Source: a virus. From it: 56,220 bases of DNA. Made by a program: the position numbers and the translations under genes. Shown here piece after piece: positions 1 through 56,220 of the stretch (position 1 is the stretch's first letter; each line of letters opens with the position of its first letter). Location of the stretch: the UHGV virus genome UHGV-0008794; one strand, 5' to 3'. The notes beneath the pieces were generated by a model. It had not been told where the DNA came from, made no database searches, and saw nothing but the letters and a program-made list of their open reading frames with translations.

Positions 1-74
1 ATGGAGATTTCCTACGTCCCCATTTCATACCAAGGACACCGTAGTGCATTAAATAGTCTGGATATTGGTACATG
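1..74 (-). CDS. MYQYPDYL-family small protein, 5' partial (only N-terminus in window; ATG at 72-74, gene runs off window start)
   Basis: Revcomp of 1-74 translates MYQYPDYLMHYGVLGMKWGRRKSP; nt 15-74 identical to 446-505 and 3483-3542; strong RBS GGAAGGAGGAATC just upstream (75-90). Confidence 0.6.
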
Positions 75-166
75 ATTCCTCCTTCCTATTTAATCTATTT
101 ACTTTTTCGATTTAGGAATTTGATCCAATCGAGATTGTATAATGCTAACTCGCTACGGAGTGTTGT

Positions 167-505
167 TTATAATAATTCAGGACCAGGGTTCTTTTTCTTA
201 TAACTTTTAATAAATTTATCAACATCTTTTGAAGACTTAAAGTTTTGTTTATCCAATTCTGACAATAAAACTTTACCGTAATTAGCTAGAGCCAATTGTG
301 ATTTTCCTTTTCTTATAGCAACACTATCATTAGCCATTTTGCCATAAGAAACGTTCTCTTTTCCAAACGTCTCGAATTTATTAATGTCTCTAGAATACTG
401 GCGCTTAACCTTGGCAACTTTCTTAGCAGCTCGGCGTTCACGTCTACGTCCCCATTTCATACCAAGGACACCGTAGTGCATTAAATAGTCTGGATATTGG
501 TACAT
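167..505 (-). CDS. MYQYPDYL-family small basic protein (112 aa)
   Basis: ORF track; conserved N-terminus MYQYPDYLMHYGVLGMKWGRRR; K/R-rich remainder; upstream CTGAAAATTCAG(AG)7TCAAATC leader instead of canonical SD. Confidence 0.7.
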   Translation of the reverse strand: MYQYPDYLMHYGVLGMKWGRRRERRAAKKVAKVKRQYSRDINKFETFGKENVSYGKMANDSVAIRKGKSQLALANYGKVLLSELDKQNFKSSKDVDKFIKSYKKKNPGPELL

Positions 506-547
506 GATTTGACTCTCTCTCTCTCTGAATTTTCAGGAGAGATTATC

Positions 548-763
548 CTAAACTCTCCAATTATCAGGAAGAATATCAGTTAACTTTAAATCTTTTGCTC
601 GTTTCTTTATCCATTTCTTTACAGCTGGCTTATTAACACCTCTACCATAAGAAGAAATGGCGTTTTTTAAATCAGATTTATTTCGTATAGGATAACCGCC
701 ATCAGACATAGCTTTTCCTTGCTTTGCCAACTTTTCTCGTTCTTCAGAAGAAAACTTAGTCAT
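548..763 (-). CDS. hypothetical small basic protein (71 aa)
   Basis: ORF track; compact spacing to TerL stop; RBS GGAGATAAG upstream. Confidence 0.5.
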   Translation of the reverse strand: MTKFSSEEREKLAKQGKAMSDGGYPIRNKSDLKNAISSYGRGVNKPAVKKWIKKRAKDLKLTDILPDNWRV

Positions 764-773
764 AGCTTATCTC

Positions 774-2519
774 CTATTCAAATGAATCTTTATTAAGTTT
801 ATATGCAATGTAAGCATCCATCATTGCTGCAACCGAGTCGATTTTATCGTCTCTACGCTGTTTTGCAAGCTTTTTGTTACCATTAGTATCTTCAATAGTA
901 ATACAATTACCCATGCAAAATTCCATCAATTCTTCATCAAATAAAAGAAGACGATTCTCAGCCAATTTCTTCAATTCACCTAAAGGAACCGATTCTGTTT
1001 TAGCTCCCTGAATAACTTTTTCTATTCCAAAAGGACCGTTCTCAGTTTGCCATCTCTGAACAAAATCTTTAGCATTATAAGGATCATACCCAAAAGCACA
1101 AACATCATATTCTTTTTCATTTATGAATTGATCGAGATCATCATAGACTTCATTCATATCTAAAGTTACACAATCAAGGACTATCAAAGACCCTTCATTC
1201 ATAAAATCTTCATATTTCAAACGAGTAGCAATAGAAAGTTTATTCATTGTATCAGATGAAATATAGCAACGGGTTTTAACGCCATACCGTTCTTTTGATA
1301 AAGGAAATAAAAAAGTAAAAGCACAGAAGTCATCGCCTTGCGATAAGTCGGCTCCCATAGCACATGGTAATTGCCAAAAATCACGATGACGATGAACTTT
1401 AGTTTCTTCGTAAGTAAAGAAGAATGTAAAACCTTCCATTGGAAGACCAAAACGCTTAGCAAGAATATCGTTACGAGCAGAAGGAACCTTCTCAGCACGT
1501 TCAACATCCAATTGATATGTTTCATAGGTAACGGTTTTACCAATATTTGGAGCAGCCTTCATCCACATTGATGGGTCGGCTACTTCTTGAACACTATCAA
1601 GTTTATAATACCAAATGGAAACATGCGGATTCTCGTATTCGCCTTTTAGAATATCCATAAGTTCCATTTTAATACTGTCGCCAACACCATTACGAACGGT
1701 TCCTTCCGAACTCGTAGCCACAATAAGCCAATCATCTAGTTTAGAAGCGCCTTGTTCTGTTGCACCCACAACATCTTCACGAGTGTTTCCGGATAGCCAT
1801 TCATCGATAGTCGTATACTTAGGTCGACTACCCTGGATCTTATCAATAGACATTGGTCGAGATTCCAAAAGGGAATTCGTAAGAAAGTTTTCAATTCCCT
1901 TTTTTGTTGAAGACAACTTAACTCTATCCGCTTTACTTCCCGTAGTATTCTGAAGAGAACCTTCTGTTAAGAACTTAAATACTGGGCCAAGAGATCTAGC
2001 AATAGCAGTTCTTATTGGTGCCAATACCTCATCTGCTTGAGCAAGCGTTGGTGCCATTGTCATCTGAGTAGTTGTTTCGGTGTCGACTACAAGTCCGTAA
2101 GCTTGAATCGACGATGCATACAAAGACTTGGCACTACCGCGAGAGACGATCAAATATTGTTTATTAATAAGTCGTTTTTTCTTACGTTTAAGAACGTAAC
2201 GACCACCATGACCATCTTCAAAAGGTTCATAAACAGAACGCTCAACGAAATAATACCAACCAAATATCTGTTCGGCCCACAACTTAAATGTATCAAGCAG
2301 ATGAAGAGATGAACCATCGGTTAATGTTAGTTCGTTTTCACAAAACTTAATATAACCTTCAACGGCTTTATCATCGTAATAGTAACGAGGATCTAGAATA
2401 AGATTGTCTATACGATTCATTTCCATTGACACTTCTCGGCATACCGGAATCTCCCCAGCTATAACAGCATCTCGGAATTGCCCGTAATAGATAGGAGTTG
2501 CAGTGTTTGAAAGTGTCAT
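774..2519 (-). CDS. terL: terminase large subunit
   Basis: 584-aa ORF; N-terminal ATPase with Walker-A-like VSRGSAKS; C-terminal acidic nuclease-like region; size typical. Start moved to ATG (M4) with AGGTGA RBS; track M1 is GTG. Confidence 0.75.
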   Translation of the reverse strand: MTLSNTATPIYYGQFRDAVIAGEIPVCREVSMEMNRIDNLILDPRYYYDDKAVEGYIKFCENELTLTDGSSLHLLDTFKLWAEQIFGWYYFVERSVYEPFEDGHGGRYVLKRKKKRLINKQYLIVSRGSAKSLYASSIQAYGLVVDTETTTQMTMAPTLAQADEVLAPIRTAIARSLGPVFKFLTEGSLQNTTGSKADRVKLSSTKKGIENFLTNSLLESRPMSIDKIQGSRPKYTTIDEWLSGNTREDVVGATEQGASKLDDWLIVATSSEGTVRNGVGDSIKMELMDILKGEYENPHVSIWYYKLDSVQEVADPSMWMKAAPNIGKTVTYETYQLDVERAEKVPSARNDILAKRFGLPMEGFTFFFTYEETKVHRHRDFWQLPCAMGADLSQGDDFCAFTFLFPLSKERYGVKTRCYISSDTMNKLSIATRLKYEDFMNEGSLIVLDCVTLDMNEVYDDLDQFINEKEYDVCAFGYDPYNAKDFVQRWQTENGPFGIEKVIQGAKTESVPLGELKKLAENRLLLFDEELMEFCMGNCITIEDTNGNKKLAKQRRDDKIDSVAAMMDAYIAYKLNKDSFE

Positions 2520-2582
2520 GGATTTCACCTACTTCATTATATTTTTTCTCAACTTTTTAATTCCGATTTTACACTACTATTT

Positions 2583-2622
2583 GTCAAGATAGGATTCGAA
2601 CCTATACTCCTTAAGGATTATA
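2583..2622 (-). pseudogene. tRNA-Leu-like 3' fragment (variable arm + T-arm + partial acceptor, no 5' half)
   Basis: minus-sense TCCTTAAGGAGTATAGGTTCGAATCCTATCTTGAC closely mirrors variable-arm/T-arm of the intact tRNA-Leu at 4526-4609; no matching 5' acceptor/D/anticodon arms. Confidence 0.35.
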
Positions 2623-2624
2623 CA

Positions 2625-2996
2625 TTAGATAAACCCTTTGGTTGCAAGAAATACAGCTCCAGCAGTACCAATAGCGCCGCCTGCTACTGTTGCAATAGAT
2701 CCGCGTTTTGACACTTCTTTATTCAATGCGTTTGCATATTTAGCAGTCAATAGTCGGCCATCAGATTTAGCCTTAGATATTACCTGATGATTTTTATTTG
2801 TGTCATGTTTAGCTCCTCCAGCTTTAACATCTTTTCGCCATTGAAGAGCTTCTTCATCAGAAATTCTAGATTCGCTTTTATTAAGACGTTTTGACATTTG
2901 CTTTTTAGACCGACCAATAAGTATCTGTCTACGTCTCTGTCCCCACTTCATGCCTTTAATGCCATGGTGAGCAAGATAATCTGGATATTGGTACAT
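2625..2996 (-). CDS. MYQYPDYL-family paralog with C-terminal glycine-rich TM segment (123 aa)
   Basis: N-terminus MYQYPDYLAHHGIKGMKWGQRRR; C-terminus VAGGAIGTAGAVFLATKGFI hydrophobic; (CT)5 leader upstream. Confidence 0.65.
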   Translation of the reverse strand: MYQYPDYLAHHGIKGMKWGQRRRQILIGRSKKQMSKRLNKSESRISDEEALQWRKDVKAGGAKHDTNKNHQVISKAKSDGRLLTAKYANALNKEVSKRGSIATVAGGAIGTAGAVFLATKGFI

Positions 2997-3020
2997 GATT
3001 TGACTCTCTCTCTGAATGTG

Positions 3021-3542
3021 TTATGCATTAGATAAAAGTTCACCAACGGTAAGACCGGATTTGGTTTTCTTTTTGGCGTATTTACCAAGAATATCGTCTA
3101 CGGATTTTTGCCCAGTATTAACGTAATTATCCCAAGCCTTTCTTTCAGAAATCTCCGACTTTCCACTCGGTATATTTGAAAGGTAATGATCCTCTAAACC
3201 TTCTTGCCATTTTCTATACGACTTACTTCCCTTTTCAAAAGGATTACTTTTATCACGGTCAGCTTGCTTTTTTGCTTTAGCCATACGTCGGTCAAAATCT
3301 TTTTCTGATTTATCAAAAGCTTTAGACCATTTATCACGAGATGATTTTACATTACTCTCATGCCTCGTATATTCGGACGTACCTCGAACAGCAGAATACG
3401 TATCACTAACTTGTTTACTGCGATTGTAAGCTTTATTAGCTACTTTTTTAATATGCTTTGCCGATTTTTTTTGAGCCCTGCGTTGTCCCCATTTCATACC
3501 AAGGACACCGTAGTGCATTAAATAGTCTGGATATTGGTACAT
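3021..3542 (-). CDS. MYQYPDYL-family paralog (173 aa from internal ATG)
   Basis: Track ORF starts earlier (MSVEGGIM..) but GGAAGGAGGAATC RBS directly precedes the MYQYPDYL ATG; first 57 nt identical to other copies. Confidence 0.65.
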   Translation of the reverse strand: MYQYPDYLMHYGVLGMKWGQRRAQKKSAKHIKKVANKAYNRSKQVSDTYSAVRGTSEYTRHESNVKSSRDKWSKAFDKSEKDFDRRMAKAKKQADRDKSNPFEKGSKSYRKWQEGLEDHYLSNIPSGKSEISERKAWDNYVNTGQKSVDDILGKYAKKKTKSGLTVGELLSNA

Positions 3543-3961
3543 GATTCCTCCTTCCACGGACAAGTATCATGCGGTTTACGAACAATAGGATCTGATGGGA
3601 GGAGACTCTGATTACCATAATGAATAGCTTCGTGTGTTTTGTGAGAAACACAAATTACGTTATCCATTGAAAAGATTAACGGATCACGATCTTCGATTTG
3701 TTCGGATGTTATAGGATTAATATGATGGATGATTATTCGCCCAACAATATTATAACCTTCAAGTCCCATATCAAAACCTTGATCACGAATGATTACAAGA
3801 TTGCGAAACGAACGCCATTCTTGCGACCAATACAAAGCTTGGTTAAGATATCGATCAAATCCAAACGTTTCGCTTCCAACACATCCATTCAATTTCAAAT
3901 ACTTAAATCGATCTGTATAGTTCTGGATTTTCATCAACTCAGAATAACTCTTCAATGTCAT
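3518..3961 (-). CDS. HNH homing-type endonuclease
   Basis: HNH signature GLEGYNIVGRIIIHHINPITSEQ...NVICVSHKTHEAIH (His-Asn-His with CxxH); start trimmed to internal ATG (M44) to avoid 150-nt overlap with upstream ORF. Confidence 0.7.
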   Translation of the reverse strand: MTLKSYSELMKIQNYTDRFKYLKLNGCVGSETFGFDRYLNQALYWSQEWRSFRNLVIIRDQGFDMGLEGYNIVGRIIIHHINPITSEQIEDRDPLIFSMDNVICVSHKTHEAIHYGNQSLLPSDPIVRKPHDTCPWKEESCTNIQTI

Positions 3962-4379
3962 TGTCGTCACTTCCACGATAACCACGAAATGCTTTAAGAG
4001 CATCTTCATAAAGTTTAAGGTTATCTTTCTCAGATTCGATCTTCGCGCTCTTTGCTTGAAGAAGTTCGTTTTCACTTTTAAGTTTTTCATTCTCCAATTG
4101 AGTTCGCGTCGAACCGAGTTTAAGATAATGAACTAAAACCGATGGACTTGCAGTGCCATCTAAAATTTGTTTTTCGGCAAGATCGATGGCTGCTGATATA
4201 AGTTGATTCTCTCTTGCTTCAACTGTCAAAGCTGGAGCTCGACGCTTCTTTTTAGCAGTTGCCACCGCTTTTCGCCTCTCTTTCTTGAAATTGTCGCATA
4301 CTTCTATAAAAGAACTTCCGAGCAGAAGACCGCTTTTAATGGGTTTCTTGAAAGGAGAAAAGGAGAACTGGGTCACCAC
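3939..4379 (-). CDS. putative small terminase subunit / DNA-binding packaging protein (basic N-terminal HTH-like region + C-terminal coiled coil)
   Basis: 146 aa; KKKRRAPALTVEARENQLISAAIDLAEK helix-turn-helix-like; leucine-heptad C-terminus; position next to HNH and tRNAs near terL. Confidence 0.3.
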   Translation of the reverse strand: MVTQFSFSPFKKPIKSGLLLGSSFIEVCDNFKKERRKAVATAKKKRRAPALTVEARENQLISAAIDLAEKQILDGTASPSVLVHYLKLGSTRTQLENEKLKSENELLQAKSAKIESEKDNLKLYEDALKAFRGYRGSDDNDIEELF

Positions 4380-4448
4380 TACCAGTTTTTGTTTTTAACT
4401 CGGAAGTTCTTTTATAGAAGTATGAAGGTGTAAACTCCAAAAATATGA

Positions 4449-4524
4449 TTGGTGCGGGGTGACGGATTCGAACCGACAACCAAGAGATTATGAGTCACCT
4501 GCTCCACCCTTGAGCTAACCCCGC
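4449..4524 (-). tRNA. tRNA-Met (anticodon CAT), CCA encoded
   Basis: minus-sense GCGGGGTTAGCTCAAGGGTGGAGCAGGTGACTCATAATCTCTTGGTTGTCGGTTCGAATCCGTCACCCCGCACCA; cloverleaf with anticodon loop CTCATAA. Confidence 0.8.
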
Positions 4525-4525
4525 A

Positions 4526-4609
4526 TTGGTACCTCCGATGGGATTCGAACCCATACTCCTTAAGGAAACGGATTTTAAGTCCGTCGTGTCTGCCGTTCCA
4601 CCACGGAGG
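4526..4609 (-). tRNA. tRNA-Leu (anticodon TAA), long variable arm, CCA encoded
   Basis: minus-sense GCCTCCGTGGTGGAACGG...GGACTTAAAATCCG...TTCCTTAAGGAGTATGGGTTCGAATCCCATCGGAGGTACCA; anticodon loop CTTAAAA. Confidence 0.8.
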
Positions 4610-4631
4610 CGATTATAGGAAGAATCGGTGT

Positions 4632-4994
4632 TTACTTTTGTCGCAACGAATACTTTCTAGTTGAAACGTCGTAAACTACAACATATTTTTCTTGTGCTTT
4701 CTTTATATACGAATTGGTAGTCTTTGCATAATGATTGGCGTATTTTTGAAGTTGTTTTGCATTATCTTGAGCATGTTTGATTTGAGCGTACTTTTGACCA
4801 TACGCAATAGGCCCAGCCTCTCGAGCAGAAGCATCACGTTTTTTTGCTTCTATTTTCCAGGCATTGGCCTTTTGTTGATACCGGTCTGCTTTCTTAGCCT
4901 TACGATTTAATCGTGAAGTTATAACCTTTTTACGTACACCCCATTTCATGCCTGGGATACCGTAGTGCATTAAGTGGTCTGGATATTGATACAT
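4632..4994 (-). CDS. MYQYPDYL-family paralog (120 aa)
   Basis: N-terminus MYQYPDHLMHYGIPGMKWGVRKK (diverged at a few nt); (CT)7 leader upstream. Confidence 0.65.
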   Translation of the reverse strand: MYQYPDHLMHYGIPGMKWGVRKKVITSRLNRKAKKADRYQQKANAWKIEAKKRDASAREAGPIAYGQKYAQIKHAQDNAKQLQKYANHYAKTTNSYIKKAQEKYVVVYDVSTRKYSLRQK

Positions 4995-5152
4995 GATTTG
5001 ACTCTCTCTCTCTCTGAATTTTCAGAGGAAAACCCTATCTCTAAATTCAAAATTCCATTTTGACCCCCGGAGAATTTTTGAAGACCCGCGCGATGAAGGG
5101 AGGGGGTATTTTTTGCGAAACCACCTCTCCCCCCACCTTTGAATAAGATATA

Positions 5153-5386
5153 TTATTCATCAGTAACTTTTTTATAGAAACCATCTGGATTCATTTGAAT
5201 GATTTCATCAATTGCATCTTCGACAGCTTGGTCTTGGGCTAAGTTGCCTAAGTCATTTGAAGTTATCGCAATCCTTGCTAAGTAACCTGATGTACAGTAG
5301 CCTTTTGATTCATCATAATTATACCATTCATCAAACTCTGTAATAGGATTGAAAGGATTATCGACAGTTGTTAGCATCACAGTCAT
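5153..5386 (-). CDS. small acidic hypothetical protein (77 aa), last gene of replication/RNAP operon
   Basis: ORF track; D/E-rich; tightly follows the RNAP-like gene. Confidence 0.5.
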   Translation of the reverse strand: MTVMLTTVDNPFNPITEFDEWYNYDESKGYCTSGYLARIAITSNDLGNLAQDQAVEDAIDEIIQMNPDGFYKKVTDE

Positions 5387-5398
5387 GTCTCATCCTTT

Positions 5399-8098
5399 CT
5401 ATACTGTAAGTGCTTTCTGAATAGTAGATGTTGAGACGCCAAGACTATCAGCTATCTCAGCAAGGGTATAACCATTAGCCTCAAGAGCTTTAGCTTTCGA
5501 TACTTTGCCTGGGCTCATGCCTTTAAACTCTCTAGGCATAGCTAACTGTTTAAGAGTATCTAGATCCGAGTTGTTGATGATCTGCTTAAGTTTGTTAGAA
5601 GAGATAGCACCAGCTTGAATAGCTTCCCATTCAGAAGACGTTATCTGTATCTGTTGTTTACCAGCCCCCGTTTTAGCACGAGCCTTAATAAGAGCTCTGG
5701 ATTTAAGCTTTTTAATATCATCACTATCTAGATTAGGATTTGCATCTCGTACAGCTTTAACTTCGGCATTGGCTAATAGCTGGGCCTTTCTTTCTAAAGG
5801 TCTATTCTTTAATGCTGTGTTAAGCTTAGCATCCAAAGAAGAAACCTCTTTGTTATACTTCTTCTTAGCCTCAGGAGAATACGGAATTGGCTTGGTATTA
5901 CGAGACTGGATACGGGCTTGATTTGCTAGTGATTTTAATTTATTAGCATGTTCAGCATATACACTTTCAATCATAGTTCCAGAAGACAAAGAATATGCAT
6001 CACTTGTGTCCGCCATCTTTGTAGTCTTCTGTAAACGAAGAACTTCTTTCCCTGATTTATTCGTGTATGTTTCGCCAGTCTCTCGAAATATCTTTTCACC
6101 ACGGTTATAACGCGTCAATTCTTCAGGAGTCATATTCTTAGTGCTTGTAATTTCTTTTCTTACAGGCACTCGTTTATCACCTGAAGCTCGAGAAATAAGA
6201 GTTGAAGCTCCTGCATTTTCTCGACCTTGATATTTCTTCTTCAAAGCGCGAATATTATTATCAATCTCCGATTGTTTATAATTTAAATTATGCTTCTCGG
6301 CATCAATAACAACCATTGAATGACGAACTGCTGCCGCAATTTCATTCGGATCCGCACCTCGAATAGTCATATCAGTAATTAGATTTGAAACATCGCCCAT
6401 TTGACGTTGTTTATTAAATCCAGAACCTTTATCGCCAGTACGAATCATTCCAGGATATGCTGGATATGAAACCTTAGGATCAAAATCTTTCAAACCTTTC
6501 AATGGATCTGACGTTCGAATATTCGCACCACTCATTGGAATAACAAGAACTGTATCACCATCAAAGTCCGCACCAGACAAACGCTCAGCAACTTTAGGAT
6601 TAATACCGACAGCATCTTTAGCATTATGAATAAGACTATTAGCCGTTTTATGCTTATTATTCACTGTAAGTTCAGGAATCTCAAATGTTCCTCCATGAGG
6701 ATATCGAACCAAAGCTACTCGTTCACCATTACGAAATGAAGGAGCATAAATCTCGGTGTCTTTCATATCAGGGAATGGTAAAATAACTTTGGATGCCTGA
6801 CGAGGAAGACCGGCAGCTTTTAGATGAACAGCAGCTGAATCGCAACCATCAGCAAATTTTTCAAGAAGCTGTTGTTTGATAATGGGATTCTCTAATTTTA
6901 TAATCTCATTATATTCTTCAGCTTTAAGATCATAAGCCAATTTCAATTGCTTTTTTGCAAGCATGGGAGACTGTTTAGATAACATCTGAGAAGATAAGCT
7001 TTTTCGCCAAACGTTCCAATCGCCTTCTTCGTTAACGATATTTAAAGCCGATTGCTGTTTTTTACCATTCTTGTCGATGTAATATCGCTGAGCCATGACT
7101 AAGCGATCTTCACCCTTAATGGTTGCGCCAAAAGGATTATCAGAATCTTTCTTCATAGGTTTTAAAACACTATGGTCTTTTTCTCCGAGCATCGGAGTTC
7201 CTTTAGATTTGTTAGTGTTAAAGACAATGTCAACGCCTTCGGGCATGTTATCGCTATACATAGCCATACCCTTAATATAATGAGTGCCATCAACAGCAAT
7301 TCGAACTTGAGCATAACGAGCGTTACCTAAGGAAATATCATCAACACCTCGACGAAGCTCAATAACGCCATCTTTATCGATGCCACCATCCTCTTTGTAG
7401 TTAATTTTAACTCGCTTAGAGGATATACTTACTGGAGCCTTTAAAGAATCATATGAAGTTCCTTTATCGCTCGAATGATATCCAGGAAATTCAATTTTGT
7501 CTCGATTCTTAGAAACTTCAGAATATGTAGTACCTGGTTTAGCAAGAACCATGATCGATGTTTTTTTACCAGTGCCCATCTGTTCGGTCTGAATATAATG
7601 TCGAGTATATCCTTCTTCTTCCAATTTACGAATTGAATTATCCAGAACGTTACGACTTACACCCATTTGATTCTCAACGCCACCGCCAACATCAATATAA
7701 CCTTTCTTGTCAACAGCTTTTTTAAGCACATCGGCAGTCATGGTTGTCTTGTTTGCGCGATCTGTAGCTTGAGGTTTCAAATAATTACGAACAGTAGATT
7801 CATTAGTTCCCATTTTTTCAGCAATAGCGACATTAGAATATCCTTTTGCTTTTAACTTTTGAGCTTCTGAAACTCTAGCTGCATATACTTCATTTCGAGC
7901 ATTAGAATATTGAGAACGATATTGTTTAACGGTTAGACCGCATGCGTCAGCAACTTCTTTCTCGCTAAGTCCGCTTTTCTTTAATTCATTAGCATAATTA
8001 TAAAAGTCCGAATCGCGCTGATATGGATCATCACCGCTTCCCCACGGATATCGACCGGAATGGCGCTTAGTGCCATAATGATATAGTTCATCAAACAT
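5399..8098 (-). CDS. putative single-chain two-barrel (multisubunit-type, YonO-like) DNA-dependent RNA polymerase with HTH modules
   Basis: 899 aa; VRYPHGGTFEIPEL...SGADFDGDTVLVIPMSG matches the universal beta-prime active-site segment (RQPTLHRLGIQAFEP...NADFDGDQMAVHVPLS); several sigma-region-4-like HTH stretches at N- and C-termini; start ATG overlaps upstream stop (TAATG). Confidence 0.5.
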   Translation of the reverse strand: MFDELYHYGTKRHSGRYPWGSGDDPYQRDSDFYNYANELKKSGLSEKEVADACGLTVKQYRSQYSNARNEVYAARVSEAQKLKAKGYSNVAIAEKMGTNESTVRNYLKPQATDRANKTTMTADVLKKAVDKKGYIDVGGGVENQMGVSRNVLDNSIRKLEEEGYTRHYIQTEQMGTGKKTSIMVLAKPGTTYSEVSKNRDKIEFPGYHSSDKGTSYDSLKAPVSISSKRVKINYKEDGGIDKDGVIELRRGVDDISLGNARYAQVRIAVDGTHYIKGMAMYSDNMPEGVDIVFNTNKSKGTPMLGEKDHSVLKPMKKDSDNPFGATIKGEDRLVMAQRYYIDKNGKKQQSALNIVNEEGDWNVWRKSLSSQMLSKQSPMLAKKQLKLAYDLKAEEYNEIIKLENPIIKQQLLEKFADGCDSAAVHLKAAGLPRQASKVILPFPDMKDTEIYAPSFRNGERVALVRYPHGGTFEIPELTVNNKHKTANSLIHNAKDAVGINPKVAERLSGADFDGDTVLVIPMSGANIRTSDPLKGLKDFDPKVSYPAYPGMIRTGDKGSGFNKQRQMGDVSNLITDMTIRGADPNEIAAAVRHSMVVIDAEKHNLNYKQSEIDNNIRALKKKYQGRENAGASTLISRASGDKRVPVRKEITSTKNMTPEELTRYNRGEKIFRETGETYTNKSGKEVLRLQKTTKMADTSDAYSLSSGTMIESVYAEHANKLKSLANQARIQSRNTKPIPYSPEAKKKYNKEVSSLDAKLNTALKNRPLERKAQLLANAEVKAVRDANPNLDSDDIKKLKSRALIKARAKTGAGKQQIQITSSEWEAIQAGAISSNKLKQIINNSDLDTLKQLAMPREFKGMSPGKVSKAKALEANGYTLAEIADSLGVSTSTIQKALTV

Positions 8099-8655
8099 TA
8101 CGCTTCCTCCGCTCTCAACTCGTTAATGCATTTATCAAAAGTGATAATCTTGTCCATAAGATGGAAAATATCATTTGGATCTGGAACTTCAATCACAACA
8201 TTGCCTGACTGATATATTCGCAATTCAGCTTCGATTTCATTTGGTTTGACATCGTACTCAAGACAAAAGTATGCCATATAAATTTCCAACTGAACCATGG
8301 ATACTTCACTAACACCAGTTTTCAAATCATGAATTCGAAGTTTGTTGTTTTTGAAAGATATGGCATCAGCAGTTCCAAATGCATTATTGGAATAATATAA
8401 AACTTTCTCGGGCTCCATTTTAAAGCCAATTGCATCGTTGACATAAGAATTCAAAGTCTGTCCAGTATCTTCGAGTTTAATCCCCAAAGAAATAAGTGAT
8501 GCAGCCAATTCATGAAGTTGAGTTCCACGCATTGCAGCCATATTATTAGAATATACACGAATCAATTTGTCTTCATCATAGTTTACCCAAGCATGATTAC
8601 TAGCACTAAGAAACGAATGTTGACCGCTAAGATTTGAATGATTGTTCCAACGCAT
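8098..8655 (-). CDS. putative nuclease (possible PD-(D/E)XK fold)
   Basis: 185 aa; D...IHDLKTG...E.Y motif arrangement; located in nuclease/helicase/polymerase cluster; weak. Confidence 0.3.
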   Translation of the reverse strand: MRWNNHSNLSGQHSFLSASNHAWVNYDEDKLIRVYSNNMAAMRGTQLHELAASLISLGIKLEDTGQTLNSYVNDAIGFKMEPEKVLYYSNNAFGTADAISFKNNKLRIHDLKTGVSEVSMVQLEIYMAYFCLEYDVKPNEIEAELRIYQSGNVVIEVPDPNDIFHLMDKIITFDKCINELRAEEA

Positions 8656-8920
8656 CTAAAACTTCCTCCTTGTTTTCTGGAAATATAAATGCCGAGAACG
8701 ACATTTGATTCATTAGGTCAACATAGTAATCTTGATTTGGTTGATGAGAGGCATTGCCAGATCTTTTACACTCCAACGTTGCCCATCGATCGTTCCACAA
8801 AATAAGAAGATCGGGTATACCTTGATAATCTCCAGGATCAAGTTTTAAAACCATACATCCTGGAAATATATATTGCAACTCTTTCTTCAACTTTGTTTGA
8901 AAAGCACTTTCCTTAGCCAT
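8627..8920 (-). CDS. VRR-NUC domain nuclease
   Basis: 97 aa; GIPDLLILWNDRWATLECKRSG matches VRR-NUC G-PD...E-K core. Confidence 0.65.
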   Translation of the reverse strand: MAKESAFQTKLKKELQYIFPGCMVLKLDPGDYQGIPDLLILWNDRWATLECKRSGNASHQPNQDYYVDLMNQMSFSAFIFPENKEEVLDALEQSFKS

Positions 8921-8993
8921 AAAAACACCTTTTAAATAAAAAGACGAAGAGTAGAAGAACCTTAAATCAAGGTCTTATTCTACTCCTCTTCTA

Positions 8994-10262
8994 TTATAGC
9001 ACATGATTTTTCTGCGAATCAAGATTCTCTATAAAAATGGACTCATTGAAGTTTTTCTTAGATTGAATCGCTCTGAATATACTTGCGTCAATCGATGAGT
9101 TAGATCTCAGTCGATAATAATACAGATCGGAATATGGAGTATTGATCCTATCAATACGACCAGCAGCCTGTTCCATAATTTTGTATGAGTAATTCAATGA
9201 GTAAAATACAATCACATTGGTTTCCACACAATTCCAACCTTCAGCGCCGGCTGTATACTGAACCAAATATACCCATCGATCGCCATCTAAAATAGCCTCA
9301 TGCTTATGCCCATTCCACTCGGACCAAGGAATTTGATTGTTCTCTAATAGTTCTCTCAAGATTTCCAACTCATAATCGAAATTGTAGAATACGATTACCT
9401 TAGAATTCAAATTGAGAATACTAAGCAGTTCTGCAGTTCTAGAAATATCTGAATTAACAATTTTTCTAAAAACAAGACATGCTTCTCCAGCATTACGAAT
9501 TGGTCTTCCTTCAAATACGTGCCATTTATCTTTTGAAGCTTGCTTATAAAGCTCCTTGTCATAATCAACTAGTATATCATTAAAATGTCTAATAGCTTTC
9601 TTTTGATATTCCATAGTAACAACAATTTGCTTTCGATATTCTTCTAATCGATGACAATTAATGTAACGTTCAATTTTAGGATATTTGGAAAATCGACTAA
9701 AGACAGCATGTTCTCTAAGAAATTCAGTTTTATTTTTATAGAACCCATTCGCTAAGAACACCGGAATATAATCAGACCAAGTATCACCTGGCGTAGCAGA
9801 AAGCAGTATCCAATGATTGCTTTTAGAAATCTTGAGAAACGACTTAACCCATTTACCAGAACCGACTAAACGCTGTTCGTCAAATATAAAGAACGAATCT
9901 TTAACATTAACATATTTTGCGATATTATTCCAACTATCGATAACCAATTTTGTTCCCCAATAACTATCAGTCTTAGATAATAAAAATGGAAGACATTCTT
10001 GGTCCCACTCGCAAGTATTTCGTTTACGAGCAGTTGTAATAATATACAAATCTTTTGGTTTAGTCATTGGTAAAAGTTCGCCATCTTGAATTTTGCCTCC
10101 GCATTCATGACAAAAATAATAGGCGATGGAAGTTCTGGACTTGCCAGATCCGACCCCACCACATAAGATGGAGCCAGACCTTAGCTCGTCCATTGCTTTA
10201 CTCTGATGCGGATATAAACTAATATTCATCCGAGATATCAGCATACTTGTCGGCAAATTCAT
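8994..10262 (-). CDS. SF2 (DEAD/SNF2-like) helicase
   Basis: Walker A GGVGSGKS, DEQR Walker B (FIFDEQRL), motif III LLSATPG; start uncertain (track 10271 is TTG; ATGs at 10262 and 10229). Confidence 0.65.
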   Translation of the reverse strand: MNLPTSMLISRMNISLYPHQSKAMDELRSGSILCGGVGSGKSRTSIAYYFCHECGGKIQDGELLPMTKPKDLYIITTARKRNTCEWDQECLPFLLSKTDSYWGTKLVIDSWNNIAKYVNVKDSFFIFDEQRLVGSGKWVKSFLKISKSNHWILLSATPGDTWSDYIPVFLANGFYKNKTEFLREHAVFSRFSKYPKIERYINCHRLEEYRKQIVVTMEYQKKAIRHFNDILVDYDKELYKQASKDKWHVFEGRPIRNAGEACLVFRKIVNSDISRTAELLSILNLNSKVIVFYNFDYELEILRELLENNQIPWSEWNGHKHEAILDGDRWVYLVQYTAGAEGWNCVETNVIVFYSLNYSYKIMEQAAGRIDRINTPYSDLYYYRLRSNSSIDASIFRAIQSKKNFNESIFIENLDSQKNHVL

Positions 10263-16592: not shown

Positions 16593-17537
16593 TCAGATCA
16601 GATCATAAATAACGCCATCAACGTTGAAATCAAGAAGAATGGATGGCTCATAACCATTTACGAAGTCACGTTTGTTAACATCGTTAATTTGGAAGATATT
16701 GAAATCAACATAGCCATCTCCATCTTCGCCAATATTACCATCATTCCAAATCCAACCAACAACGGCACCTGCTGCGGAACGCTTAAAGCCGAGATTATCG
16801 TAAACTTCGTTCAGGAAAAGATGACCACGAGAACGAAGCATATCGTTCAGCATATTCTGAGCAGTCTCCAGAAAGTATTTGTTCTGCTCAGGGCTCTTAG
16901 ACCAATTGGGATTTGCCTCGTCGAAGAATCGAGCGTACTGACTTACTTGAATACCGGGAATAACTTCAGTCTTAGTCTTTACGGTCTTAGTTTTACCATT
17001 TTCGGTCTTGATCTTTTCAGATTTGGTCTCAATCTCGGTTCCATAATAAAAATGACGATCTTGATCTTCGCCAAGCTCCGTGCGAACTCGATCTCGATAG
17101 TTGTTAAACGTCTCTTCACAAAGCTTATATGCTGCTACGAGAGCTACATTACGCTTCTTCATGATCCCATGTGCGCCGAAGAAGCAAGAAATACCCAGAA
17201 CGGTCAGAGTTACGCCTGGAGCATATTCCTTCACAAGCTTCTTACCGCAATTAATCTTATTGATGAGAATATCCTTCTTGTAATCTTCTTCAGAATATTC
17301 TACACCTTCTTCGAGTTCCACGTCACCATTGTGAACAGACTCGATCTTCTCCTTGTTTTCCTTATTTTCGTCTAGAATCTCATCAACCTTAAGTGTGGCT
17401 TTAGCCGTAGCTACCGTACCAGCGACAATAGCTACCGTACCAGCGGCCATCAAGATTTCAGGACTATATTTCTTAGCGATCAGTAGTGCTCGACTACCAT
17501 TCTTAATAGCAATATCTTTAATTGCTCCAATGTTCAT
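16593..17537 (-). CDS. membrane protein, paralog family A (full length, 314 aa)
   Basis: N-terminal TM pair and AHGIMKKRNVALVAAYKLCEETFNNY segment homologous to 20173-20988 product; C-terminal domain (VSQYARFFDEANPNWSKSP...GWIWNDG...LLDFNVDGVI) duplicated as ORF 29017-29346. Confidence 0.55.
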   Translation of the reverse strand: MNIGAIKDIAIKNGSRALLIAKKYSPEILMAAGTVAIVAGTVATAKATLKVDEILDENKENKEKIESVHNGDVELEEGVEYSEEDYKKDILINKINCGKKLVKEYAPGVTLTVLGISCFFGAHGIMKKRNVALVAAYKLCEETFNNYRDRVRTELGEDQDRHFYYGTEIETKSEKIKTENGKTKTVKTKTEVIPGIQVSQYARFFDEANPNWSKSPEQNKYFLETAQNMLNDMLRSRGHLFLNEVYDNLGFKRSAAGAVVGWIWNDGNIGEDGDGYVDFNIFQINDVNKRDFVNGYEPSILLDFNVDGVIYDLI

Positions 17538-19425: not shown

Positions 19426-19447
19426 TATAGCGTATGAAATTCTTGCG
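19424..19447 (-). promoter_or_regulatory. conserved promoter motif copy 2 (CGCAAG-N12-TATAAT)
   Basis: minus-sense GTCGCAAGAATTTCATACGCTATAATGACGGAG. Confidence 0.5.
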
Positions 19448-52144: not shown

Positions 52145-53998
52145 TTACGCTTTTGGGTAGGTCTCCAAGGCGATAGCAGAATAAGGAACCGTAAGAGCAC
52201 CAGAGCAACGAGTCTCGATAAGGTACTTCTGCTGATTGTAGTCGATATCGAAGTCGTCAAACATCGAAACCGCACCGCCCTTATCGGCACCAACATTGTA
52301 GTCCTTCAGGTTGACGATCAAACCCTCAAGAGTGAACGTCTTAGACTGCAAACCAGAAGCGTCCTTAGTATCGCCAGCACGAGTAGTACCCTCAAACACA
52401 GGAATGGTAACAATCTTCTCAACACGAAGCTTCTGAGCAAGCTTATCAACAGAATCGTACAGATCTCGACCAGTGGTATCCGTCAGAAGAAGCATGGAAG
52501 TAAGATTATCTTCGGTTGTGTAGAACGTAGGATTACCAGAACCCTTGTAATTCTTACGAGCACGAATAGCAGCCTTAATAAGAGCACGAGCCTTATCGTC
52601 CTCACTCATAGTGGACTTATCATACTCGATCTGAGTACGAATGGTGTAGAACGGGTCATCACCATAAATAGGACGAATATGATCGGTAGAGATCTTGTCC
52701 TCAGAACCAGCAACACGACCGTCACCGATCATGTAAGCACGAGCAAGTTCCTCGTCCAACATCATACGCATTTCGCCCTTAAGCCAAAGGATAACATCGA
52801 AATCGGTGATATCAACAATATCGTCTCGATCAAGCTTCTGCTTCTTATAAACAGTCTGAGGATCAGTGGTGCGCTTTAACAAGGGGAATACTTCTTCCTT
52901 CTTCTGCTTACCCTTGATATAACCCTTAGCACGAGCCTCATCCTCATCAATAGTAGCAAAGACGCTCTTGATACGAGAGAACGGAGTATGAGAAACGGCT
53001 TGCATAACACCAGAAACCCACGTCTTATCTCGACCAACAAAACCAGGAGCATTGGTCACCGACTTATAATCAGGGAAGAGATAATCAATATGCTCTACGC
53101 CGTAATTGGTGGAATGCTGAAGAAATGCGTCAGCTTCTTCCATAGCATCATGCTGCATGAACGCTTCCTTAAGCGAACCGTAACGCTTAGCATCGCGAAT
53201 AACTTCGCTAAAATCAAAATGCGCCAATGTATTCTCCTCAGTATCATCATAAAACACGTTATGCTTCATATCTTCATTGTCCTCTCCGGTCTGACCCTCA
53301 CTAGCCATACCAACCAATGCATAAAGAACATTCTTTTGCTCTTCAGTCATGCTGTCAATAACATCCTGAACGGTCTTTTCTTCTTCGTCAGCATGTTGCA
53401 ATTGCTTAGCCATCTGCTTCTCTTTCTCTTGCTTTTTATTATCTTCAGTTTCCTCATCATCGGACGATTCTTCTGTAGATTCCTTATTTTCTTCTTCGTC
53501 ATCAATAGACGAATCTTCTTTCTTCTTTTTATCCTCTTCCGAATGGAAAAGTTCCAAAGTAGAAAATTGCGACATGATAGCTTCTTCCTCATCATCATAA
53601 TCATGAACCAAAATAGTATCAATCTTGGCTCCAGGATTTGCTCCGGCAAGGACCAAACTTACTTCACGAATCGCTCCGTGAATAACATCTGCTCCATTTT
53701 GCTTTAGCTTGTTGGCATAAATAGAGAAAGAATTAACATCTCGATTTTTTACAGCAGCCTTTGCGTGTTGACCCTCTGGAGTATCATTACACTTAGCGTA
53801 ACCATAAACGCCATCTGAACGATTCTCAAGATCACAATGACCGAGAATATTCAATGGAGACATATGATCATGCTGATATACAAGAGGTACACGAGTTCCA
53901 TCGCAATCTTTAAAAGCGTCCTGTCGAATGATTCGACCATCGGAACATCTTACATTATTGCGTGTAACATAACCGCAAAAATCATAATCGTTATTCAT
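52145..53998 (-). CDS. fused prohead protease (HK97/U35-like) - acidic scaffold-like linker - HK97-fold major capsid protein
   Basis: 617 aa; N-terminal ADVIHGAIREVSLVLAGANPGAKI fits U35 protease E-x-S-h-V...PA motif; aa ~150-215 extremely D/E/K-rich; C-terminal ~350 aa with MCP-like pattern. Confidence 0.55.
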   Translation of the reverse strand: MNNDYDFCGYVTRNNVRCSDGRIIRQDAFKDCDGTRVPLVYQHDHMSPLNILGHCDLENRSDGVYGYAKCNDTPEGQHAKAAVKNRDVNSFSIYANKLKQNGADVIHGAIREVSLVLAGANPGAKIDTILVHDYDDEEEAIMSQFSTLELFHSEEDKKKKEDSSIDDEEENKESTEESSDDEETEDNKKQEKEKQMAKQLQHADEEEKTVQDVIDSMTEEQKNVLYALVGMASEGQTGEDNEDMKHNVFYDDTEENTLAHFDFSEVIRDAKRYGSLKEAFMQHDAMEEADAFLQHSTNYGVEHIDYLFPDYKSVTNAPGFVGRDKTWVSGVMQAVSHTPFSRIKSVFATIDEDEARAKGYIKGKQKKEEVFPLLKRTTDPQTVYKKQKLDRDDIVDITDFDVILWLKGEMRMMLDEELARAYMIGDGRVAGSEDKISTDHIRPIYGDDPFYTIRTQIEYDKSTMSEDDKARALIKAAIRARKNYKGSGNPTFYTTEDNLTSMLLLTDTTGRDLYDSVDKLAQKLRVEKIVTIPVFEGTTRAGDTKDASGLQSKTFTLEGLIVNLKDYNVGADKGGAVSMFDDFDIDYNQQKYLIETRCSGALTVPYSAIALETYPKA

Positions 53999-54206: not shown

Positions 54207-55505
54207 CTAAGTATACTGATTTTGTCCATCGACTGGATAATCTTCGTATCCAGAAGAACCTTGATCATCTACCGAATAGTTAGTAGAATCTGAACCGTAG
54301 TCAGCATTTGGGTCGATAAGATTTCTATTTCTAAGTTCATCAGAAGATTCATCCTCTGAAGGTTTGAACCCAAGAGCGGTTCTAAACTCGTTAGGAGTAA
54401 GAATCTCATTACGACTTAATGTATCAGCCATTTGAGCAATTTGTCCGACTGTCATATACCTAAACGGATCTTGGAACGTCATAATAGTTTGACCTTGAGT
54501 TCGAGCCGTTTTAGTAAGAAACTTACGAATAAGTTCATCTTTAATTGCGTCGATAATTGGAGCAACAGTTCGTTGATAATAATTGTTCATCGTCTCAGCA
54601 TTTGCTGTTCCGTTAAGAATGGTTTCATCAATACACAACTGAGTATAAAGTTGCTTGGTTAAATCGTTGATCTGTGACATCAAATTGTTATCGATTGAAC
54701 GATTCAATTGAGTAACTTTCTCCGTGGCATCAATATATGCAATGCCATACTTAGAGTTCGTCAATTGTGCTTCGATACTTCGTTTCCTAGTATCTGCTCG
54801 CTTCTCTTGAGTTTCGTTCTTGATTATATATGGAAGCTGGACAATCATGTCAAGTTTACTAGAATTGTTTTTAGCATCAGCATCATCTAACAATCCAAGT
54901 TTATACACAAGTCGACTCATTGTTGAATTCTTCTCATTCATAACCGAATAGAATGGATTTTCAACAATAGCAACGAAAGATTTAGGAAGCGTTATTGTTT
55001 GAAACTGTCCTTTTTGATCATTGTAAAGTTTGACATCGACATGTTTTGGATACCAAGCTACAATTTTTCCAACACGCATTGATTCGATTCTTAACGAATT
55101 TGTTTCGTAAGGATCGTCATACGTATCGACAGGAACAATTGCTATGCAGCCTTCATCTAGAAGAGATAAAGCAATATCTAATTTAAAAGCAAAACCGCTT
55201 TGATCGATATTAGCTTCCACGTTTAAACAATCGTTTAATGTGGATTTGATGGTTTCTTTATATCGATCTTGATCGTCAACTCGAACATGTTTGAAATCTG
55301 TAGACGCTACGTCTAAAGCTATTCGAGTATAAATCGCTGAAATAATGGTTCTTTCTTTTCCAGTTATTATCTTTTTGCGATCTGGACGATATCCCCATGT
55401 TCCAGAGCCAATATCTAAAGAAACCGGATAATAATCCTTTTTCTCTTCATTTGAAACGAAGGCATTCCAAGCATGCTTAAGACGATTCGAAAATGTCTCA
55501 GCCAT
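54207..55505 (-). CDS. portal-like protein
   Basis: 432 aa, size/position upstream of protease-capsid gene; acidic C-terminal tail. Confidence 0.4.
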   Translation of the reverse strand: MAETFSNRLKHAWNAFVSNEEKKDYYPVSLDIGSGTWGYRPDRKKIITGKERTIISAIYTRIALDVASTDFKHVRVDDQDRYKETIKSTLNDCLNVEANIDQSGFAFKLDIALSLLDEGCIAIVPVDTYDDPYETNSLRIESMRVGKIVAWYPKHVDVKLYNDQKGQFQTITLPKSFVAIVENPFYSVMNEKNSTMSRLVYKLGLLDDADAKNNSSKLDMIVQLPYIIKNETQEKRADTRKRSIEAQLTNSKYGIAYIDATEKVTQLNRSIDNNLMSQINDLTKQLYTQLCIDETILNGTANAETMNNYYQRTVAPIIDAIKDELIRKFLTKTARTQGQTIMTFQDPFRYMTVGQIAQMADTLSRNEILTPNEFRTALGFKPSEDESSDELRNRNLIDPNADYGSDSTNYSVDDQGSSGYEDYPVDGQNQYT

Positions 55506-55509: not shown

Positions 55510-55896
55510 TTACCTTATTTCACTAAACGATTTTTGCGTAACTTCATATAAATCGCCATCCAATGTTTCTGCTTCTAAACAAAGACGCCATCCTAACTCG
55601 TCAATTTGTTTATTGATCGCATCAACAACAAAAGAATTAGACGGAGGATCAAATAAAAGTTGTACTTTAAGTTTTATAAAAGTTTGAACTGCAGTTAGAT
55701 TTGTTTCTGACTTTATATAATCAGACCAAAGTTCAGTTGGACCAGTAATGGAGAATCCCTCTTCTGGTCCTATTCCAAGTTGTGAAAGTGTAAATAATAC
55801 TGAATTAATATAGGCGACAATTTCGGTATCAAATGCGTCGCAATCATCTTCAATGTTAAGCATTACTTTAATCGTATTAAGTATGCTTTCACTCAT
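55510..55896 (-). CDS. hypothetical acidic protein (128 aa)
   Basis: ORF track. Confidence 0.4.
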   Translation of the reverse strand: MSESILNTIKVMLNIEDDCDAFDTEIVAYINSVLFTLSQLGIGPEEGFSITGPTELWSDYIKSETNLTAVQTFIKLKVQLLFDPPSNSFVVDAINKQIDELGWRLCLEAETLDGDLYEVTQKSFSEIR

Positions 55897-55918: not shown

Positions 55919-56215
55919 TTACATTTTAATCTTACTGAGTAAAGCTTTTCCAGCTTTTGCATAATCGCTTTGTGAAATAGCATATAATCCACCAATAGTT
56001 CCAGCAATTGCTACTGTTTTTTTTGCTACTTCGTAACCACGATTTATTTGTGAAGTACTCAAGCGATTATATTCTTGTTCTAATCGCATTCGATTATTAA
56101 GTTTTTTTAACTCATCATTCGAAAGTTTCTTTGACGACTTTCGACGCATTTTTCTAGTTTCTTTATAATCAGAACTATAAGAATCCATACGTTTCTTTTT
56201 TATACTTTTAAACAC
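55919..56215 (-). CDS. hypothetical basic protein with C-terminal glycine-rich hydrophobic segment (98 aa)
   Basis: K/R-rich N-terminal half, VAIAGTIGGLYAI segment; loosely reminiscent of C-terminus of the 2625-2996 paralog. Confidence 0.4.
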   Translation of the reverse strand: MFKSIKKKRMDSYSSDYKETRKMRRKSSKKLSNDELKKLNNRMRLEQEYNRLSTSQINRGYEVAKKTVAIAGTIGGLYAISQSDYAKAGKALLSKIKM

Positions 56216-56220
56216 ACTAG

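Follow-up and report, generated by a model that had tools for sequence, protein, structure and literature searches.

Why would five genes of one viral genome, encoding proteins that are otherwise unrelated, begin with the same peptide? The question is raised by UHGV virus genome UHGV-0008794, a stretch of 56,220 nucleotides (nt) that we analysed whole and call the window. Its list of open reading frames (ORFs) holds five on the minus strand whose N-termini read MYQYPD[YH]L.H[YH]G..GMKWG.[RK][RK], a family that is present as an earlier note, made from the sequence alone, had claimed. The peptide belongs to Pfam DUF7211, and we think it probable, if short of assured, that DUF7211 serves as a tag by which internal cargo, later ejected, is incorporated into the capsid, resembling the capsid-targeting sequence (CTS) of phage T4 in role and with no known relation to it in sequence. 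That the shared N-terminus targets injected proteins to the capsid had been suggested in the earlier note, and the suggestion gains indirect support from the tag's linkage to one head module, from the enzymes it carries in relatives and from 'structural protein' labels in Lactococcus phage 1706.

Five genes with a common start and unrelated bodies

The tag genes, named after the coordinate at which they start, are given with lengths in amino acids (aa) and isoelectric points (pI).

1..73, minus strand: 5' part of tag gene c73; tag at nt 73..8; crosses the circular junction at 56220
55919..56220, minus strand: 3' part of tag gene c73, with a further conserved motif, LSNDELKKLNNRMRLEQEY, and a hydrophobic segment rich in Gly; 'core' body type
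167..505, minus strand: tag gene c505; 112 aa, pI 10.1; tag at nt 505..440
2625..2996, minus strand: tag gene c2996; 123 aa, pI 10.4; C-terminal Gly/Ala-rich hydrophobic segment
3021..3542, minus strand: tag gene c3542; 173 aa, pI 9.9; helical body
4632..4994, minus strand: tag gene c4994; 120 aa, pI 10.2

The window closes into a circle: once base 56220 is joined to base 1, the frame of c73 runs on, and the gene is complete across the junction at 124 aa and ends at 55919. This gene had been read as truncated and starting at 74; it is real, has its ATG at 73..71 and is not truncated. Counted from the ATG, in the alignment and directly, 62 identical nt are shared by c73 and c505 and 58 each by c73 and c3542 and by c505 and c3542, which bears out the 57–60 claimed for these three copies. 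Of their first 60 nt, 49–50 match in c4994 and 40–43 in c2996, with mostly synonymous differences in both cases, and c2996 has the tag most diverged at synonymous sites among the five. Past residue 24 the five proteins show no body similarity to one another (best BLASTP E = 0.11), and a Pfam scan found no recognisable domain in them besides the tag. All are basic (pI 9.9–10.4), so the description of unrelated yet basic bodies stands, as does that of a glycine-rich hydrophobic C-terminal end, which is seen in c2996 and in c73 too.

Pfam PF23847 (DUF7211), a 25-position profile with a gathering score of 27 bits to which Pfam assigns no function, matches c505 at 40.9, c2996 at 43.2, c3542 at 43.8 and c4994 at 38.7 bits; c73 was recognised by a local profile hidden Markov model (HMM) of the tag. 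The consensus, [DE][DE][FY]L.H[YH]GV.GMKWG.[RK][RK], spans about 22 residues. Among 1.84 billion cluster representatives there were 8,740 matches at E <= 0.001. The motif proved widespread, in answer to the search that the earlier note had proposed; it is also already catalogued as a Pfam domain of unknown function (DUF), and it is often internal rather than N-terminal. The PHROG families matched by the four complete ORFs comprise about 12 without known function and one labelled 'virion structural protein'. Searches with larger queries returned little: tblastn of the whole c505 protein against GenBank phages gave no match, and megablast of the first 12 kb gave only a weak match to a human-gut 'Siphovirus contig89'. 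The tag is absent from PDB chains, sequence searches of solved structures matched neither it nor the window's polymerase, and our literature search found no paper mentioning DUF7211 or the GMKWG string in a phage-tag context.

Linkage of the tag to one head module

We took a census of GenBank phages by tblastn with a 30-residue tag query at a relaxed E-value. The tag occurred at 926 places in 244 phage records, and the 899-aa polymerase homologue of the window, described below, in 250 phages (tblastn). Tag and polymerase counts are equal for nine host genera: Arthrobacter (95), Gordonia (55), Streptomyces (54), Lactococcus (13), Curtobacterium (7), Microbacterium (4), Rhodococcus (4), Faecalibacterium (2) and Caudovirus (2). 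The best tag places lie in the head region of the left arm, outside the polymerase gene. Arthrobacter phage Qui, for example, has nine copies, one before the gene for the terminase large subunit (TerL) and eight between TerL and portal, and seven of the eight copies in phage ReqiPepy6 fill the entire TerL–portal interval.

In IMG/VR, more than 600 stretches matched the tag pattern, and 80 loci retrieved by it were sampled. TerL of the same type (59–84% identity) was found in 73 of the 80, the portal in 59, the fusion of S78 protease, scaffold and capsid protein in 54, the connector in 62 and the HNH endonuclease in 62; the polymerase appeared in 20, wherever the upstream flank fetched was long enough. 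The 77 GTDB loci, some of them prophages in cultured Clostridia (for instance in the complete genome AP018533), included 67 with TerL, 63 with the connector, 55 with the portal and 30 with the polymerase, and only four were free of markers, each shorter than 3.5 kb. Tag genes always lie on the gene strand, in the interval from HNH or connector to TerL, in that from TerL to portal and occasionally in that from portal to the protease–capsid gene. Linkage to a head module of TerL, portal, S78 protease-scaffold-capsid fusion and connector therefore holds in GenBank phages, IMG/VR and GTDB.

One locus, L083, was considered as an exception and rejected: it has the 239-aa ORF of the window (32878-33597), and the flank that was fetched does not reach its head genes. 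At 9992-11762 of L083, two tag genes adjoin the lysis/early boundary, outside the packaging block, one of them coding for a 320-aa protein without known domains. Not every genome, therefore, restricts the tag to that block.

Variable cargo on a constant peptide

In a non-redundant set of 240 tagged proteins, each of 60 aa or more, 99% carry a net positive charge, with a median of +0.105 charges per residue. Hydrophobic segments, where present, lie 40–190 residues downstream of the tag. In relatives of the window the tag is attached to recognisable enzymes. One tagged protein is an ADP-ribosyltransferase (PF03496, E = 5e-31), closest to the catalytic domains of CdtA, iota-Ia, Vip2 and C3, and it fills the slot held by c3542 and c2996 in the window. 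A papain-fold glutamine-deamidase toxin domain (PF15644) was found in three of ten and in one of eight tagged proteins scanned. Other payloads are GNAT acetyltransferases, a C-terminal helix-turn-helix (HTH) domain, an MGMT-type DNA-binding domain and a 2H phosphoesterase/LigT-like domain, the last in ReqiPepy6 gene 13 and in a tagged 'RNA ligase' of Gordonia phage Eddiemania. As far as sequence comparison can tell, a constant delivery module with variable payloads is the architecture of polymorphic effectors.

An AlphaFold2 (AF2) model of c3542, built with 17 homologues, has a helical body with a predicted local distance difference test (pLDDT) score of 80–88 for residues 60–150 and a disordered tag with pLDDT below 50. 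The model is consistent with a short linear motif that would become ordered only on binding a partner. Foldseek with this model returned generic helical matches only (best E = 0.64).

A variant tag on the lineage's polymerase

Upstream of the tag genes in the direction of transcription lies the polymerase gene, with a variant of the tag at its start.

5399..8098, minus strand: homologue of YonO-like two-barrel RNA polymerases; 899 aa with a DFDGD motif and HTH domains at either end
8098..8033, minus strand: variant tag, polymerase residues 1-22; MFDELYHYGTKRHSGRYPWGSG, with a 4-residue insertion

The protein matches phrog_4291 ('RNA-dependent RNA polymerase', RdRP) with E = 0 over 895 residues and shares about 53% identity, along its full length, with proteins of the 250 GenBank phages, whose hosts belong to Arthrobacter, Gordonia, Streptomyces, Lactococcus, Curtobacterium, Microbacterium, Rhodococcus and Faecalibacterium. 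By these sequence features it can be placed in the YonO/RdRP-like two-barrel family. A preprint describes the same heterogeneous supercluster of phages, with a polymerase bearing YonO/RdRP-like motifs as signature gene; it reports the motifs and an HHpred match to PF05183 for the supercluster proteins and does not mention the tag family (bioRxiv 10.1101/842583). Polymerase N-termini of six distant phages read [DE]..L.H[YE]G[TVI].R.SGRYP[WY]GSG. In a profile–profile comparison with hhalign, ddfLaHyGVkG----MKWG aligned with d.l.HyG..R.SGRYPwGSG at a probability of 92.7% (P = 4e-7). The variant was present on 14 of 14 polymerases in the collected loci and on no other ORF. In the accessible literature, neither activity nor packaging of the polymerase has been demonstrated for this phage lineage.

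Two further observations concern this polymerase. In the Streptomyces phage HotFries (MH155869, L013), the annotated polymerase start is at 397 and the tblastn match begins at 301; judging from the alignment, the GenBank start was probably called too late, cutting off a tag-like N-terminus. The window also contains a 25-mer, TCGCA[AG]-N-CA[CT][GA]..[CT]TATAAT, with a fixed 14-nt spacing that does not fit a sigma-70 -35 element. It has 8 matches against 0.54 expected, all on the minus strand and all in the early/middle region (8993-9017, 17883-17907, 19424-19448, 20053-20077, 24956-24980, 30164-30188, 30309-30333 and 30721-30745), and is a candidate for a promoter specific to the phage, which the phage polymerase may use. 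A scan of positions 1-9200 for sigma-70 promoters and terminators gave chance-level results.

Structural labels in phage 1706

The GenBank record of Lactococcus phage 1706 (EU081845) words its predictions as 'putative ...' and labels a separate set of ORFs 'structural protein'. Among the latter is orf7, directly upstream of TerL, with two DUF7211 stretches (Pfam E = 7e-11). The depositors gave the same label to orf75, the 1,029-aa polymerase homologue. The ReqiPepy6 record in turn describes proteins as 'similar to 1706_gp07, structural protein' and 'similar to 1706_gp75, structural protein'.

Internal tags and a candidate processing site

The proteins of the window have a single module each. 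Multi-tag relatives occasionally contain a GNAT or deamidase domain, and most of their modules have no known domain. We compared 330 distinct internal tags with control windows. Internal tags show an excess of His or Gln at -10 to -12, the very positions that the Met occupies in N-terminal tags. A strict motif, H[SA][DE], stands at -9 to -11 of 12% of the internal tags against 2% of control windows, a sixfold excess, and the relaxed form H[SDTGNM] lies at -10 to -12 in 39% against 8.6%.

The strict motif also marks the protease-scaffold-capsid fusion. In six such fusions it occurs 18 times against 2.8 expected, always at linker domain junctions. The junction after the protease domain reads LELFH-SEED (window aa 152), and that before the scaffold repeats LQH-ADEEE-KTVQDVIDSMTEEQKNVLYALVGMA (LQH-ADEEE in the window, aa 202). 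Before the capsid domain, the junction is strict in 1706 (VITH-ADF), L002 (TLQH-SEL) and ReqiPepy6 (ALSH-SEI) and relaxed in the window, L006 and Qui (TLAH-FDF, TLSH-SQL), with TLAH-FDF at aa 260 of the window's protein. Because H[SA][DE] is common to the fusion junctions and to the positions upstream of internal tags, we suggest that the prohead protease may cut multi-tag chains inside the procapsid, each piece regaining an N-terminal tag.

The fusion linker contains an acidic repeat, H-ADxED-KTVQDV[IF]DSMxEEQKNV[LV]Y..[VI]G.A, present once in the window (52145-53998), twice in L006 (8656-10605) and four times in Qui, and located at 18335-20767 in L001. By its sequence it is probably a scaffold (delta-like) repeat of variable number.

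A core member and recombining cassettes

Genomes carry one to nine tag copies. Among three close relatives the window has five, and the related gut-phage contigs L002 and L006 have four and eight. The c3542 orthologue directly follows the polymerase in L002 and L006 and comes after HNH in the window; in about 90 loci, no homologue was seen of the bodies found in c505, c2996 and c4994. A body of the c73 type is found widely, each time next to the connector gene. Since copy number, slots and bodies vary and the c73-type body stays by the connector, the family consists of one conserved core member and mobile, fast-evolving cassettes. ORFs of 31–78 aa with little beyond the tag and a short basic tail are also common (L006 709-885; database protein matches) and may be remnants of recombination between tags or genuine mini-proteins.

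The repeated sequence reaches upstream of the ATG. AGAGAGAGAGTCAAATC-ATG stands before c505, c2996 and c4994 (3 matches against 0.01 expected), and GGAAGGAGGAATC-ATG precedes the remaining two copies, c73 and c3542. Classes of 5' untranslated region (5'UTR) and classes of tag combine differently among the copies, a mosaic pattern. Two further features belong to these repeats.

506..540, minus strand: shared 5'UTR cassette CTGAAAATTCAG-(AG)n-TCAAATC upstream of c505; copies at 2997-3013 and 4995-5029
2588..2617, minus strand: tRNA-Leu-like fragment of 30 nt, directly downstream of c2996

The fragment's position after c2996 parallels the order of c4994 and then tRNA-Leu, and it is the trace left by a segmental duplication. 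Directly upstream of c505 and c4994 (506-540 and 4995-5029), a (CU)n/(AG)n pair can form a small hairpin, CUCUCCUGAAAAUUCAGAGAGAG, that partly sequesters a purine-rich putative ribosome-binding stretch; L006 and L002 have related copies.

What has been conserved, then, the nucleotides or the peptide? The earlier note had left the choice between cassette-like duplication, gene conversion and a constraint at the nucleotide or RNA level. If it were the nucleotides that are conserved, as a site of recombination, a regulatory RNA or an element of translation initiation, and the peptide were incidental, the 58–62 identical nt in three copies and the 5'UTR cassettes shared before the ATG would be expected. 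An alignment of 17 gene starts from the window, L002 and L006 points elsewhere. The window's near-identical copies share TAT (Tyr7) and CTT (Leu14), and those of L006 share TAC and CTC at the same codons. The four copies in L002, like c2996, differ at many synonymous sites and keep the peptide, which high-GC actinophages encode with different codons. The exact 58-nt tag sequence was found neither in the related loci nor in IMG/VR. RNA folding of the shared 5' regions is no better than that of shuffled sequence (z -1.7 to +1.2), an Rfam scan returned two tRNAs only, and tags inside long proteins cannot be initiation elements. A nucleotide-level element is thus largely refuted, and we leave it next to no probability. 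Because synonymous variants are genome-specific, the L002 copies have diverged synonymously, actinophages keep the peptide and the folding is insignificant, selection acts on the peptide and not on the nucleotide sequence. The identity among paralogues that share genome-specific synonymous variants instead supports the other options of the earlier note, recent duplication or gene conversion within the genome, a form of concerted evolution as read from these alignments.

Weighing the explanations

The tagged proteins might be structural parts of the head interior or of the ejection apparatus, the tag serving as an assembly or oligomerisation motif by which paralogues join in a core, a portal plug or a membrane-spanning conduit for DNA entering Gram-positive cells. 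Their genes sit within the head-assembly genes, orf7 of 1706 is labelled structural, and a c73-like body (tag, basic region, LSxDELxxxxxRLxLExxY, hydrophobic segment) is conserved lineage-wide by the connector gene. Hydrophobic segments in 17% of tagged proteins would suit this explanation as well. A copy number of one to nine and bodies that vary in close relatives are, however, unusual for obligate parts, three of the five window bodies lack homologues in the loci compared, and enzymatic toxin payloads suit cargo better; we regard the explanation, which overlaps with that of a cargo tag and is not exclusive of it, as rather unlikely. A tag that brings diverse phage proteins to a hub in the cytoplasm (host RNA polymerase, a chaperone, a protease or terminase, for instance), with bearers that are not virion components, would agree with the disorder of the tag in the AF2 model, as for hub-binding motifs, with the variant on the phage polymerase and with extreme conservation across hosts of two phyla. 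Such a hub would itself need to be conserved from Actinobacteria to Clostridia, yet the tag tracks the phage head module and not the host. With a tagged 1706 protein and the polymerase labelled structural, and the genes in the late packaging/head block and not among early genes, we find a hub quite improbable. The earlier note had also considered a secretion tag. As a membrane-targeting or secretion signal, the peptide could serve superinfection exclusion, lysis control or toxins against neighbours, its bearers acting at the producing cell's membrane or beyond it; some members, toxin fusions included, have a transmembrane (TM)-like segment after a basic linker, and several Qui paralogues are annotated 'membrane protein'. 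The tag is nevertheless Gly- and aromatic-rich and charged, has no hydrophobic core and is unlike Sec, Tat and lipoprotein signals. Moreover, 83% of tagged proteins have no hydrophobic segment, the polymerase, a cytoplasmic DNA-dependent enzyme, bears the variant, and internal repeated tags are incompatible with a signal peptide. Secretion is not supported and seems to us very improbable indeed.

Several observations count against a capsid-incorporation tag as well. Linkage cannot single out a tag-binding head component, because everything in the lineage co-occurs. From the wording of the GenBank annotation, on which this reading rests, we infer that the 1706 labels are experimental virion identifications; they put two tagged proteins in virions and do not make the tag the cause. 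In the same record, orf62 and orf71, small ORFs of the replication region without the tag, are labelled 'structural protein' too, which would mean either other routes into the virion or co-purification. The strongest database matches are proteins of 400–1,469 aa with three to five tags, often internal, and a tag so often internal or repeated is unlike the strictly N-terminal T4 CTS. The processing motif is only partly penetrant, at 12% of internal tags in its strict and 39% in its relaxed form. Neither the Pfam DUF7211 model nor a simple HMM of the tag recognises the polymerase N-terminus, and only the profile–profile comparison is significant. Promoter-like elements of the early region end in TATAAT, so host polymerase may suffice early, weakening the need for an injected one. 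A membrane role, finally, would fit the TM-like Ala/Gly-rich segments of about 17% of the 240 proteins too.

A capsid-incorporation tag remains the explanation we prefer, and we infer from it tag-mediated encapsidation, ejection and protease release of internal tags. The five genes would encode small, highly basic internal head proteins, each docked by its first ~22 residues inside the assembling procapsid. The system would belong to a lineage of Lactococcus 1706-like and Rhodococcus Pepy6-like phages, the actinophage supercluster and gut Clostridia relatives. Synthesis of tagged proteins would fall late, alongside that of terminase, portal and capsid; packed in with the DNA, the proteins would enter the next host when it is infected. 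Payloads would be modular: the window would load small basic proteins only, plausibly DNA-associated or membrane-active, relatives would load toxin-like or host-modifying enzymes by the same tag, and the lineage's RNA polymerase would bear a variant of it. Recombination at the shared gene openings would duplicate cassettes, exchange them among slots and, through gene conversion, homogenise them; this would account for the 58–62 identical nt. The five genes of the window would then be a local, recently homogenised cassette set. A broader claim, which we offer as possible and not yet as probable, is that DUF7211 is a general capsid-loading and delivery peptide of a large siphophage lineage of Actinobacteria and Clostridia/Bacilli. 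It would inject a YonO-like polymerase together with shuffling basic proteins and toxin-type enzymes, and multi-tag chains would be polyproteins cut by the prohead protease between His and Ser/Ala in phi-x-His-Ser/Ala-Asp/Glu.

Gene neighbourhood and other features of the window

The window is a siphovirus-type genome of about 56 kb transcribed almost wholly on one strand, and all genes in 1-8100 are on the minus strand. Along transcription, the order begins with helicase, nuclease genes, the 899-aa polymerase-like protein, a 77-aa gene, c4994, tRNA-Leu and tRNA-Met; it continues with phrog_4259, HNH, c3542, c2996, TerL, a 71-aa gene, c505 and c73, and ends with connector, portal, a 67-aa gene and the S78 protease-scaffold-capsid fusion. 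The tag genes lie among terminase, connector and portal, around the packaging genes as the earlier note had placed them.

774..2528, minus strand: terminase large subunit; tag genes on both sides
3518..3958, minus strand: HNH endonuclease (phrog_4321); start coordinate approximate
3939..4271, minus strand: phrog_4259 protein in the small-terminase position; likely GTG start near 4271
55510..55896, minus strand: head-tail connector (Phage_connect_2)
54207..55505, minus strand: portal protein
52145..53998, minus strand: S78 prohead protease fused to an acidic scaffold repeat and the major capsid protein; domain junctions carry H[SA][DE] motifs

After the 77-aa gene that follows the polymerase, a G/C-rich intergenic stretch of 158 nt spans 4995-5152. 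The linear genomes of 1706, of ReqiPepy6 (3' cos overhang annotated) and of Streptomyces phages end at the matching point, and by this correspondence the stretch is probably the cos site; c4994 would then be the first gene of the packaged genome. Between tRNA-Met and the phrog_4259 gene lies a perfect 26-bp inverted repeat (4297-4322 and 4399-4424, 76-nt spacer), which may be regulatory or packaging-related. Elsewhere, ARAGORN reports a tRNA-like gene at 29975-30047 with an undetermined anticodon ('ac'). Two direct repeats, one of 240 nt at 82% identity (16738-16977 and 29105-29344) and one of 62 nt at 87% identity (16606-16667 and 29018-29079), would indicate a duplicated gene segment in the early region.

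Significance and comparison with known systems

The Pfam family DUF7211, the phage supercluster and its polymerase are already known. The accessible literature contains neither the multi-copy tag family, its linkage to head module and polymerase and its toxin and enzyme payloads, nor the polymerase variant tag, the concerted evolution of copies and the candidate processing site. If the proposal is right, a Pfam DUF with about 8,700 sequence clusters would gain a function, and the puzzling run of genes for 'hypothetical' and 'membrane' proteins that separates terminase from portal in hundreds of actinophages, lactococcal and gut phages would be explained. Each tagged ORF would be a candidate injected effector, giving a searchable catalogue of host-takeover and anti-defence functions in Gram-positive hosts, where few are known. 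The signature polymerase of the lineage would be a virion enzyme, which would change the view of early transcription. On the broader claim, the system would be a new portable means of protein delivery in Gram-positive phages, and the polymerase the first packaged two-barrel one outside crAss-like phages. A 25-residue loading peptide would also be a practical handle for packaging foreign proteins in phage particles.

The T4 CTS has about 10 residues, ends in a Leu/Ile-x-Glu cleavage site and has no known resemblance to HYGVxGMKWG. In T4 it is carried by IPI-III and Alt, mostly basic and otherwise unrelated internal proteins that are injected with the DNA, include an ADP-ribosyltransferase payload and are encoded in a hypervariable locus, the peptide itself staying constant (PMC3012670, PMC9026906, PMC5512222). 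The five window copies are similar in being a short shared leading peptide on unrelated basic proteins encoded with head genes, and the wider family in its ADP-ribosyltransferase payload (in relatives) and its constant peptide amid variable bodies. They differ in that the CTS is strictly N-terminal and removed by the gp21 protease, whereas DUF7211 is Gly- and aromatic-rich, often internal and repeated. The setting differs as well: T4 has a head with a scaffolding core, and here a Gram-positive siphovirus has an HK97-type capsid fused to an S78 protease.

MuF polymorphic toxins of temperate phages (PMC5576092) and polyvalent proteins (PMC5512222) place variable toxin or enzyme domains among late head genes and are predicted to be packaged and injected; neither paper mentions the tag motif or phage 1706. 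A constant head-associated module with variable ADP-ribosyltransferase, GNAT and deamidase domains recalls both, in relatives of the window only, and the long multi-module chains, possibly processed by protease, may recall polyvalent proteins. The carrier is a peptide of about 25 residues, unlike the ~300-aa MuF/SPP1 gp7 domain, and a Pfam scan of about 40 tagged proteins turned up no MuF domain. By analogy, a short disordered peptide docking cargo inside an HK97-fold shell would also resemble encapsulin cargo-loading peptides and the scaffold-mediated targeting of HK97 and P22. Encapsulin peptides, however, are usually C-terminal and of other sequences, and their shells neither package DNA nor eject cargo. 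As for the polymerase, YonO of SPbeta is not known as a packaged protein. The virion RNA polymerase (vRNAP) of coliphage N4 is T7-like and huge, unlike the YonO/RdRP-like two-barrel protein of the window; the 'structural' label of the 1706 homologue is what one would expect of a packaged polymerase, such as N4 vRNAP or the RdRP-like polymerases of crAss-like phages.

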